Shown: piece after piece, positions 59,431-61,524 of the stretch | Numbering within the stretch: position 1 is the first letter of the stretch | Layout: the number at the start of each line of letters is the position of its first letter | Assembly: GCA_964410395.1 (NCBI GenBank) | Contig: CAYPGS010000018.1 | Span: forward strand, 1 to 64,000 | DNA length: 64,000 nt | From: an uncultured bacterium | Lineage (GTDB): Bacteria > Krumholzibacteriota > Krumholzibacteriia > JACNKJ01 | Direction of reading: 5' to 3' | Made by a program: the position numbers and the translations under genes | Notes under the pieces: model-generated | Databases searched by the model: none | Seen by the model: the letters and a program-made list of their open reading frames with translations, nothing else | Told to the model about the DNA's origin: nothing

Positions 59431-60374
59431 ATGCCCAGAACGCCGCACGTTTCGCTCGCACTCGCCCTCTTCCTGTTCCTCTCTGCCATGTCCGCGCTGG
59501 CCCACTGGGATCCTGGCGACGGGCACAGATGCACTTCCCCCAGCTTCCCTATGACCTGGTCTATCCCTCCGAATTCGGAATCGATGTGGCATTCGCGAAC
59601 ACGCGACTGGCCGATGATTGGGGCTGCATCGAGTCCGGTCCGGTCGACGAAATCCATGTCTGGGTATCCTGGCGCAACAATATCGTCATTCCAGTGGGCC
59701 TGATCGGGGTTAGAATCTGGTCCAATGATCCTGACGGGCCTGGAGGCTACCCCGTTCCTGGTCAGCTCCTGTGGGAACGCTTCTTCGACCCCTCGGAGTA
59801 CACCGTGCGGCCGATGGAAGACCATATACAGGGCTGGTTCGATTTCGTGGCCGGGAATTTCTGGGAGAACAATCACGAATCCTGGCATCAGATCAACATC
59901 GTCGACATCGTCGAGCCCTTCCATCAGGAGTATGCAACTCTGTACTGGCTCGAGCTCGAATTCGATCAGTCCGATTTCGCCATCGGCTGGAAGGTGGCGG
60001 GCGTCGCCGGCTTCCAGGGCACGGCCCTCTACTGGGACGGCGATTGGAAGGAGATGATCAATCCCCTCACCATGCAGCGGATCAGCCTGTCCTTCGTCAT
60101 CGACGGCGCCGCCCAGCCCGAGGGCTGCTGGCTCTGCTGTCCCCTGGAAGGCGACATCCTCGTGAGCACCACGGGGTCGGGCCGGACCACGCCTGACTTC
60201 AACGGAGACAAGGCTGTCACCATCGCCGACCTCGGGATCTTCGCCACCTGCCTCTTCGGCCCCTACGACCCCTGCTGCGATTTCGACTGCAACGGGGTCA
60301 CCGACATCGCCGACTTCGCCATCTTCGCCTCGCACTACTATCATAGCGGGAGCCACGAGTGCAGCTGCCCCTGA
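59431..60374 (+). pseudogene. Secreted protein with C-terminal dockerin-like double repeat (family member H), disrupted by a 1-nt frameshift in a C5 run just after the signal peptide
   Basis: RBS AGGAGG plus signal peptide MPRTPHVSLALALFLFLSAMSALA in frame 1 (track ORF 59404..59703); body in frame 0 (59529..60374). Inserting one C in the CCCCC run at 59537-59541 restores a continuous ORF. C-terminal DFNGDKAVTIADLGIFATCLFG and DFDCNGVTDIADFAIFASHY match the dockerin DxNxDGxVxxxD repeat. Confidence 0.5.
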
Positions 60375-60384
60375 TCGCGTACTC

Positions 60385-60415
60385 AGACCCATGAAAAAAC
60401 CCCCGCCACATGGCG
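60385..60415. terminator. Bidirectional terminator (AAAAAACCCCCGCCacatGGCGGGGGTTT)
   Basis: GC hairpin between the convergent dockerin-like (+) and peroxiredoxin (-) genes. Confidence 0.5.
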
Positions 60416-60443
60416 GGGGTTTCGCATTGGGATGCTCGTATCG

Positions 60444-60914
60444 CTAGCCGACCAATTCCTTGGTCTTCGCGAGCAGTTCCATCGGCTGACGCGCGCCGTC
60501 GGGACCGACGGACTTGGACCAGAGGACCTTGCCATTCTTGTCGATCAGAATGGTGGCGCGGTCGGAGATGCCCGCTTCATCCAGCCACAGGCCGTAGGCC
60601 TTGGACACTTCGCCCTTGGGATGGAAGTCGGCCATCAGGGGAAACTTGATGCCGTCAAAGGTGCTCGCCCAGCCCTTGTGTGTGAACTTCGAATCCACGC
60701 TCATACCCAGAACCTGGGTATCGATGGCCTCGAACTCTTCGAGAAGAGCGTTGAGGCCAGGGATCTCGATGCTTCAAGTGGGCGTGAAGTCGAGGGGATA
60801 GGAAACGAAAAGCACATTCTTGGAGCCCTTGAAATCCGAGAGCTTGACGATCTCGTCCAAGTGGCTGTCCAGGCTGAAATCCGGAGCGTTCGCGCCGGCT
60901 TCGATCAGGGCCAT
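60444..60914 (-). CDS. Peroxiredoxin (BCP/PrxQ-like) with an in-frame TGA at the peroxidatic-Cys position; probable selenocysteine-containing peroxiredoxin
   Basis: RBS GGAGG before ATG 60914. ..KNVLFVSYPLDFTPT-[TGA at 60774-60776]-SIEIPGLNALLEEFEAIDTQVLGMSVDS..ILIDKNGKV.. is a contiguous BCP-type Prx across track ORFs 60774..61094 and 60444..60704, which share a frame. The stop replaces the Cys of the universal FTxxCxxE motif. GC stem-loops begin ~17 nt downstream of the TGA on the mRNA. Confidence 0.6.
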
Positions 60915-61084
60915 GGATTGCCTCCGTTTGAGGTGAAAGTGAATCGCTTGCTTGGCGACAATATCCCACAAGGCTTCGGCTTTCTCAACAGGCAGAGTGC
61001 ACTCAGGATTCCGCGATCCTGAACTCCGCATCTGAAGGGCCTTCGACGACGAATCGTGGCAGTGGGCCGGCGGCGGGCATGAAA

Positions 61085-61115
61085 AATCCCCCACCTGCTG
61101 GCGGGGGGTTTTTTT
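61085..61115. terminator. Terminator hairpin (AAAAATCCCCCACCtgctGGCGGGGGGTTTTTTT)
   Basis: GC hairpin flanked by A/T runs between the thioredoxin 3' end and the peroxiredoxin 5' end. Confidence 0.45.
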
Positions 61116-61131: not shown

Positions 61132-61524
61132 TTACAGGTGTTTTTCGAGCCGAGAGATCAAGCTGTATCGTGGTGGAACGCCGGCGATGGTGTCCACGGG
61201 GCGGCCTTTCTCGAAAACGAGCAGGGTCGGCAGGCTCTTAACCTCATAGCGAATGGCCAGGTCGCGGTCCTGGTCCACGTTGACCTTCGCGAAGCGGAGC
61301 TTACCGCCCATCAGCTCATTCATCTCCTCGAGCATGGGCTCCATGGACTTGCACGGCTGGCACCAATCTGCCCAAAAGTCAACAATGACAGGGGTTTCCG
61401 AGTCCGAGATGACTTCATCGAAGTTCTGGGCGTTCAGGGGCTGGAGCTTGTCCAAGTAAGGGTCCTCCTCAAGGGTACTCTGCGCGGCGAATGTCACCAT
61501 AGCCCGGACCCTCAGGTCCATCAC
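61132..61524 (-). CDS. Thioredoxin
   Basis: VIVDFWADWCQPCKSMEP (WCxPC) and thioredoxin fold length. Start ambiguous among three Met codons (61500-61524). Confidence 0.85.
   Translation of the reverse strand: MMDLRVRAMVTFAAQSTLEEDPYLDKLQPLNAQNFDEVISDSETPVIVDFWADWCQPCKSMEPMLEEMNELMGGKLRFAKVNVDQDRDLAIRYEVKSLPTLLVFEKGRPVDTIAGVPPRYSLISRLEKHL

Follow-up and report, generated by a model that had tools for sequence, protein, structure and literature searches.

A putative one-selenocysteine, AhpE-like peroxiredoxin read across a conserved in-frame TGA in an uncultured Krumholzibacteria-like bacterium

The stretch of DNA analysed here (the window, 64,000 nt) carries on its minus strand a short peroxiredoxin gene, hereafter prx, with a TGA codon at the position of the peroxidatic cysteine. 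Very probably, selenocysteine (Sec) is inserted at this codon, number 47, in a SelB- and SECIS-dependent manner, and the product is a stand-alone 156-residue AhpE-like peroxiredoxin with a single Sec. The replacement of the peroxidatic Cys by Sec, already proposed in a preliminary description of this DNA, is supported by the presence of TGA across phyla, the existence of Cys homologs, purifying selection, three assemblies, and a downstream hairpin specific to the TGA-containing genes. The features of the locus are as follows.

60444..60914, minus strand: predicted Sec-peroxiredoxin coding sequence, 156 codons including U47, AhpE-like (from translation, Pfam, the AhpE match, and dN/dS)
60774..60776, minus strand: UGA codon 47 at the peroxidatic position, aligned to the peroxidatic Cys of AhpE and conserved in homologs
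60720..60770, minus strand: SECIS-like hairpin, two-tier minimum free energy (MFE) fold of -21.1 kcal/mol
60921..60925, minus strand: ribosome binding site (RBS) GGAGG, 6 nt 5' of the prx ATG, read from the sequence
60960..60988, minus strand: candidate sigma-70-like promoter upstream of prx (TTGAGA, 17-nt spacer, GATATT with TG)
60394..60419, minus strand: intrinsic terminator 3' of the prx TAG, CCCCCGCC-AUGU-GGCGGGGG followed by U6
61132..61524, minus strand: thioredoxin gene (WCQPC) directly upstream of prx, Pfam Thioredoxin 97 bits

The prx open reading frame runs from the ATG at 60914..60912 to the TAG at 60446..60444 on the minus strand and contains exactly one in-frame stop, the TGA at 60776..60774, within the peptide YPLDFTPT-TGA-SIEIPG. 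The predicted catalytic residues are P40, T44, U47, and R119 (motif P40-L-D-F-T44-P-T-U47), and the translation is devoid of Cys. The promoter candidate agrees with the consensus at 9 of 12 positions in a consensus scan and is a pattern match only, while the terminator is strong and folds with -30.5 kcal/mol (z = -4.14). The upstream thioredoxin gene has a terminator of its own (61107..61088). Among 198 TGA-split pairs of open reading frames in the unfiltered list for the window, none besides prx is convincing.

The position of prx within the peroxiredoxins was assessed by profile and BLASTP searches with its translation, in which Cys was put in at codon 47. Residues 7-132 match the Pfam AhpC/TSA domain (PF00578) with an E-value of 1.5e-32 and 112.6 bits, against a cutoff of 26. 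The top seven PDB matches obtained with HMMER are all of the AhpE/Rv2238c type (104-108 bits, best E-value 3e-30), and typical 2-Cys peroxiredoxins come next with at most 80 bits; BLASTP gives 42% identity with Mycobacterium tuberculosis AhpE over 142 residues. In the HMMER and BLASTP alignments, the TGA codon of prx is paired with the AhpE peroxidatic Cys (FTGIC vs FTPT-U), and R119 is aligned with the active-site Arg of AhpE. The 1-Cys enzyme AhpE (Rv2238c; PDB IDs: 1xvw, 4x0x, and 5id2) is the best match of solved structure and of similar length; the two share the Pro, Thr, peroxidatic residue, and Arg as well as the lack of a resolving Cys, whereas AhpE uses Cys45 where prx is predicted to use Sec. 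Judged by these matches, AhpE-like would be the best description of the protein.

Other peroxiredoxin types are more distant. Curated NCBIfam models were compared with six diverse representatives of the prx clade, and none of the models reaches its cutoff. The PrxU model (NF040737) scores prx at 85.3 bits against a cutoff of 270, the best match spanning only positions 34-188 of its 233, and gives 72-93 bits for the six representatives. For the BCP (PRK09437), PrxQ (NF053650), and Prx-SUH (NF045827) models, the scores of prx are 56.4, 42.7, and 28 bits, against cutoffs of 140, 260, and 298, respectively. The labels "BCP/PrxQ-type" and "PrxU-like" of the preliminary description are therefore imprecise. 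With BCP/PrxQ proteins, prx has in common the Pfam domain and the COG-level grouping, but a BCP/PrxQ identity was rejected because the curated scores lie far under the cutoffs and also under the AhpE match. Its identity as a PrxU equivalog was likewise rejected on the score; unlike PrxU, it is a short, AhpE-like protein with no Cys. The UxxC Prx-like oxidoreductases and Prx-SUH (CxxU) resemble it as selenoproteins of the thioredoxin-fold AhpC/TSA superfamily, but prx has TxxU followed by S-I-E, and UxxC, UxxU, and CxxU motifs are absent. Assignment as a Prx-like thiol:disulfide oxidoreductase (UxxC) was rejected, as no Cys follows the Sec.

The TGA is a stable property of the gene in this organism and its relatives. 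The identical TGA, with the same neighbours, recurs in three assemblies obtained independently for this organism (SRR8146440, SRR8146441, and SRR24302411), and TGC is found in none of these strain-level assemblies; gene callers cut their prx into products of 46 and 86 residues. Among the 120 closest database protein clusters, 115 are C-terminal fragments of 85-108 residues with starts that vary after the TGA position, because gene callers stop at the conserved TGA. One example is the 108-residue NCBI entry MBC8367043.1 (P0121), listed as "redoxin domain-containing protein [bacterium]".

A set of 80 homologous loci was drawn from a collection with one genome per species. At least 70 of the 80 have TGA at the same codon, far beyond what chance would give, in a set that is biased to the Sec form by the use of a Sec query, and they represent more than eight phyla: the carriers belong to Krumholzibacteriia, Planctomycetota, Myxococcota/"Deltaproteobacteria", Acidobacteriota, Chloroflexota, Ignavibacteriales, Zixibacteria, and Bacillaceae, among others. 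Metagenome-assembled genomes (MAGs) of Candidatus Krumholzibacteriia contain the closest relatives (83-84% identity). Eight loci have TGC at this codon (L046, L048, L057, L059, L060, L061, L073, and L078), and in the more distant database proteins P0072, P0079, and P0100 a Cys is aligned to the prx UGA. The TGA and TGC homologs constitute a classic Sec/Cys pair. It is of modest interest that the Sec form predominates among the retrieved relatives, given the bias of the query. The earlier claims that the TGA stands at the peroxidatic Cys position of one continuous frame, and that the frame, the RBS, and the downstream Prx sequence are intact, agree with the single stop at codon 47 aligned to the AhpE Cys, with the GGAGG 6 nt before the ATG, and with the selection acting on the gene. 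When the window gene is compared with 19 close relatives, codons 2-46 have dN/dS values of 0.04-0.40 and codons 48-150 have values of 0.10-0.36; values this low on both sides of the TGA imply that both halves are kept as a single reading frame.

Some homologs deserve separate mention. The TGA form is encoded by cultured Bacillaceae (L062, L070, L071, L074, L075, L080, and L082), namely Bacillus pinisoli, Calidifontibacillus oryziterrae, Neobacillus spp., B. suaedaesalsae, and Bacillus sp. V3-13, with the variant motif DWTPVUGAQMP, which has Gln instead of Glu three residues past the Sec. A relative with 67% identity, P0001 (L084:2001-2468; Planctomycetota MAG GCA_041398665.1, contig JAWKUH010000009.1), has a true GGA (Gly) codon at L084:2133-2135, where all other homologs have TGA or TGC. 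It retains the hairpin after this codon (-23.3 kcal/mol, z = -1.99), and the gene may have been inactivated only very recently, or the GGA may have arisen from TGA through an error in polishing or assembly. In P0062 (L085:772-1242), the "W" at the site results from a TGA translated through a gene call under code 4.

The mRNA immediately downstream of the UGA is predicted to fold into a two-tier hairpin. With nucleotides counted from the U of the UGA, the lower stem pairs nt 7-11 with 53-57, the main stem nt 18-24 with 46-52 (60759..60725), and the upper stem nt 28-33 with 38-43, leaving an apical CUCG loop at nt 34-37 (60743..60740), 30 nt past the UGA. The GGCCUC/GAGGCC stem-loop with inner CUCUU/AAGAG pairing, pointed out in the preliminary description, is identical to the MFE fold of this flank. 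As the hairpin region is coding, shuffling of synonymous codons, which leaves the protein unchanged, served as the control. The window hairpin has z = -2.75 in this comparison, with none of 200 shuffles equally stable, and z = -2.67 against dinucleotide shuffles. For 73 TGA genes the mean z against synonymous shuffles is -1.70 (Wilcoxon p = 4e-13), while the eight TGC homologs have a mean z of -0.15 (Mann-Whitney p = 1e-4 vs the TGA genes); both p-values are optimistic because the compared sequences are related. Hairpins corresponding to that of the window are present in TGA homologs and missing from TGC homologs. Excess RNA stability is a family-wide property of the TGA genes and is absent from the TGC homologs.

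In the published bacterial SECIS (bSECIS) model, the loop has 3-9 nt and the stem 4-16 bp, a G occupies one of the two leading positions of the loop, the spacing is 16-37 nt, and the MFE does not exceed -7.5 kcal/mol; a subset of the accepted elements departs from this consensus (review PMC13188914). The MFE hairpin of the window agrees with the model in loop length, stem, spacing (30 nt), and energy, but its CUCG loop violates the G rule; agreement with all four bSECIS criteria is reached in a suboptimal register, which has the loop CGA and -13.4 kcal/mol. The earlier proposal of a SECIS-like hairpin 3' of the UGA holds for the structure, to which the excess stability found only in TGA genes can be added, and falls short in the loop G, which appears in the suboptimal register only. 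Across the family, 69 of the 73 genes agree with the three structural criteria and 53 with all four. RNAalifold produced no useful consensus fold for the 73 TGA genes or for a close subgroup. The stem register shifts among lineages (i+j sums 64-71), and because of this shift column-wise covariation is not shown. Rfam has no family that matches the hairpin, and its searches gave no match at all, either at the gathering threshold over the whole window or at E <= 10 within 60600-60850.

Four other explanations of the interrupted frame were weighed against Sec insertion. An ordinary Cys peroxiredoxin inactivated by a TGC-to-TGA change, or a sequencing or assembly error at the codon, would require only one base, would fit the fragmentary annotation (the 108-residue MBC8367043.1 and the 46- and 86-residue calls), and would be in line with the lack of visible Sec machinery in the window; it is nevertheless highly improbable given the same TGA in three independent assemblies and in homologs from more than eight phyla, the low dN/dS on both sides, the intact RBS, frame, and terminator, and the restriction of excess RNA structure to TGA genes. 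Reading of TGA as Trp or Gly throughout the genome (genetic code 4 or 25) has next to no probability. TGA terminates 10 of the 36 confident open reading frames in the window, and frames 1000-1567 codons in length are free of in-frame TGA; this use as a normal stop, together with the long TGA-free frames, excludes either code. The genome is also 63% GC. Database entries with Trp or Gly at the site might seem to suggest reassignment, but the Trp of P0062 stems from a code-4 call and the Gly of P0001 from a GGA codon, and either residue at the peroxidatic site would abolish catalysis, whereas the family has TGA or TGC there. These results effectively rule out a pseudogene, a sequencing error, and a reassigned codon.

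Two further explanations concern the fate of the ribosome at the UGA. Read-through independent of a SECIS, or conditional incorporation of Cys or Trp, would yield a full-length enzyme that often lacks selenium, e.g., by near-cognate decoding or by Cys loaded through the Sec pathway under selenium scarcity. It is an unlikely account: Sec genes have as their established hallmark the strict alternation of TGA and TGC at the redox Cys together with a structured element 16-37 nt downstream, and the excess hairpin stability is specific to TGA genes. The violation of the loop-G rule by the MFE hairpin speaks for read-through, but some accepted bSECIS elements are off consensus too (PMC13188914). The presumptive status of the Sec machinery in this genome also counts on the side of read-through. 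To our knowledge, no use of selenium has been reported for Krumholzibacteria-like lineages, and a literature search combining Krumholzibacteria with selenium returned nothing specific. Programmed termination, with a 46-residue N-terminal peptide and a restarted C-terminal protein of 86 or 108 residues, could draw on the start codons found soon after the TGA in many homologs, from which the 85-108-residue fragments are called. However, the called restarts are scattered rather than conserved (at +2, +4, +7, and +17 residues or beyond), restart in the window (ATG at M71) would cost the protein its active-site helix, both halves are required for the Prx fold and the catalytic tetrad, and the N-terminal part is conserved as strongly as the C-terminal one, all of which makes this explanation very improbable.

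Insertion of Sec as the preferred reading implies that the uncultured Krumholzibacteria-like organism has the Sec-decoding trait. The statement that no selA, selB, selD, or tRNA-Sec gene lies in the window was borne out by ARAGORN, Rfam, and a motif search, all of which came back empty. ARAGORN finds no tRNA of any kind, tRNA-Sec included, in the 64-kb window and no tRNA-Sec in 60 related loci, and Rfam gives no tRNA-Sec match in the window. SelA/SelB/SelD signature motifs are absent from the window and the fetched loci in a regular-expression search, which constitutes weak negative evidence because the motifs are crude. In four loci, a tRNA-Asn(GTT) is located near the Sec-prx (L014:8059-8134, L015:1018-1093, L018:6557-6632, and L009:10972-11046); two of them are labelled Planctomycetota/Planctomycetaceae and two are unclassified, and in L015 and L018 the tRNA lies ~150 nt downstream of prx at most.

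In the proposed mechanism, the mRNA hairpin spanning nt 18-52 past the UGA would act as a bacterial SECIS and recruit SelB-GTP-Sec-tRNA(Sec), and the ribosome would insert Sec without termination, giving one 156-residue protein. The U47 selenolate, activated by the conserved residues T44 and R119 within the PxxxTxxU pocket, would attack the hydroperoxide and become a selenenic acid. An external thiol protein with a thioredoxin fold (Trx or Grx type) would then reduce the oxidised Sec, as happens with 1-Cys peroxiredoxins such as AhpE. Insertion of Sec at the UGA, binding by SelB, and the choice of reductant are inferred. Since prx has no Cys, and hence no resolving Cys, an external reductant would have to recycle the Sec. 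A C-terminal glutaredoxin domain (PF00462, ~100 residues) is fused to the Prx domain in 20 of the 80 relatives: it is monothiol and CGFS-like in Acidobacteriota/Myxococcota (L029-L039, L041, L043, and L049) and has a CPxC motif in Chloroflexota (L054, L058, L065, L066, L072, and L081). These fusions point to a reductant of the Grx type for the clade, as far as domain architecture can indicate it. AhpE is reduced by mycoredoxin-1, and the Grx/mycoredoxin-like domains fused to prx relatives parallel this dependence. Among the 60 stand-alone relatives, 25 have no Cys past the active site.

The thioredoxin encoded directly upstream is a candidate reductant of prx. Its adjacency to prx is found only in contigs of the same organism and is not conserved elsewhere, so a functional link between the two can be no more than inferred. 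A conserved trx-prx operon was rejected for the same reason and on account of the separate terminator of the thioredoxin gene.

Sec-peroxiredoxins (TxxU) are an experimentally established family with PrxU from Eubacterium acidaminophilum as the prototype (Sohling et al. 2001); they were catalogued by Zhang and Gladyshev in 2005-2006, are listed in a 2026 review (PMC13188914), and appear as COG1225 in the Sargasso Sea survey. As this family has been known since 2001, the window gene belongs to an already known kind, with which it shares the AhpC/TSA domain, the predicted Sec at the peroxidatic position of PxxxTxxU, an in-CDS hairpin after the UGA, and widespread Cys homologs. A literature search for AhpE with selenocysteine found no paper on natural Sec-AhpE proteins, and in the literature searched no experimental incorporation of selenium is described for the prx clade. 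It is possible, if on balance somewhat doubtful, that the AhpE-like branch forms a distinct, uncurated selenoprotein subfamily, in which Sec rather than Cys is the norm across more than eight phyla including cultured aerobic Bacillaceae, the proteins are cysteine-free with one Sec and often fused to Grx, the SECIS is often without the loop G, and the databases contain almost exclusively truncated fragments.

The understanding of selenoproteins is unchanged by the window prx, and its value lies mainly in the repair of annotation and in a tractable one-Sec peroxiredoxin. Its annotation should show a single selenoprotein of 156 residues instead of fragments of 46 and 86 or 108 residues. Truncation at this TGA affects at least 115 of the 120 closest clusters, and the clade escapes the curated NCBIfam models, so that a dedicated model would correct many annotations. 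The cultured Neobacillus, Calidifontibacillus, and Bacillus strains with TGA offer an easy route to the biochemistry of a natural one-Sec peroxiredoxin of the AhpE type.

Several minor observations concern the surroundings of prx. The product of the convergent gene downstream of it (59529-60374, plus strand) is a DUF7901 protein whose C-terminus is rich in Cys (...CCDFDCNGVTDIADFAIFASHYYHSGSHECSCP), and the adjacency of this gene to prx is not kept in other genomes. The 36 coding-like open reading frames of the window (positions 1-64000) end with TAG in 23 cases, TGA in 10, and TAA in 3; a TAG majority is unusual at 63% GC, where TGA usually dominates. The minus-strand terminators after the thioredoxin gene (61088-61107) and after prx (60394-60419) have a common 5' arm, CCCCCGCCA, and a common tail, TTTTTCATG, and the two may be copies of a single short repeated element.
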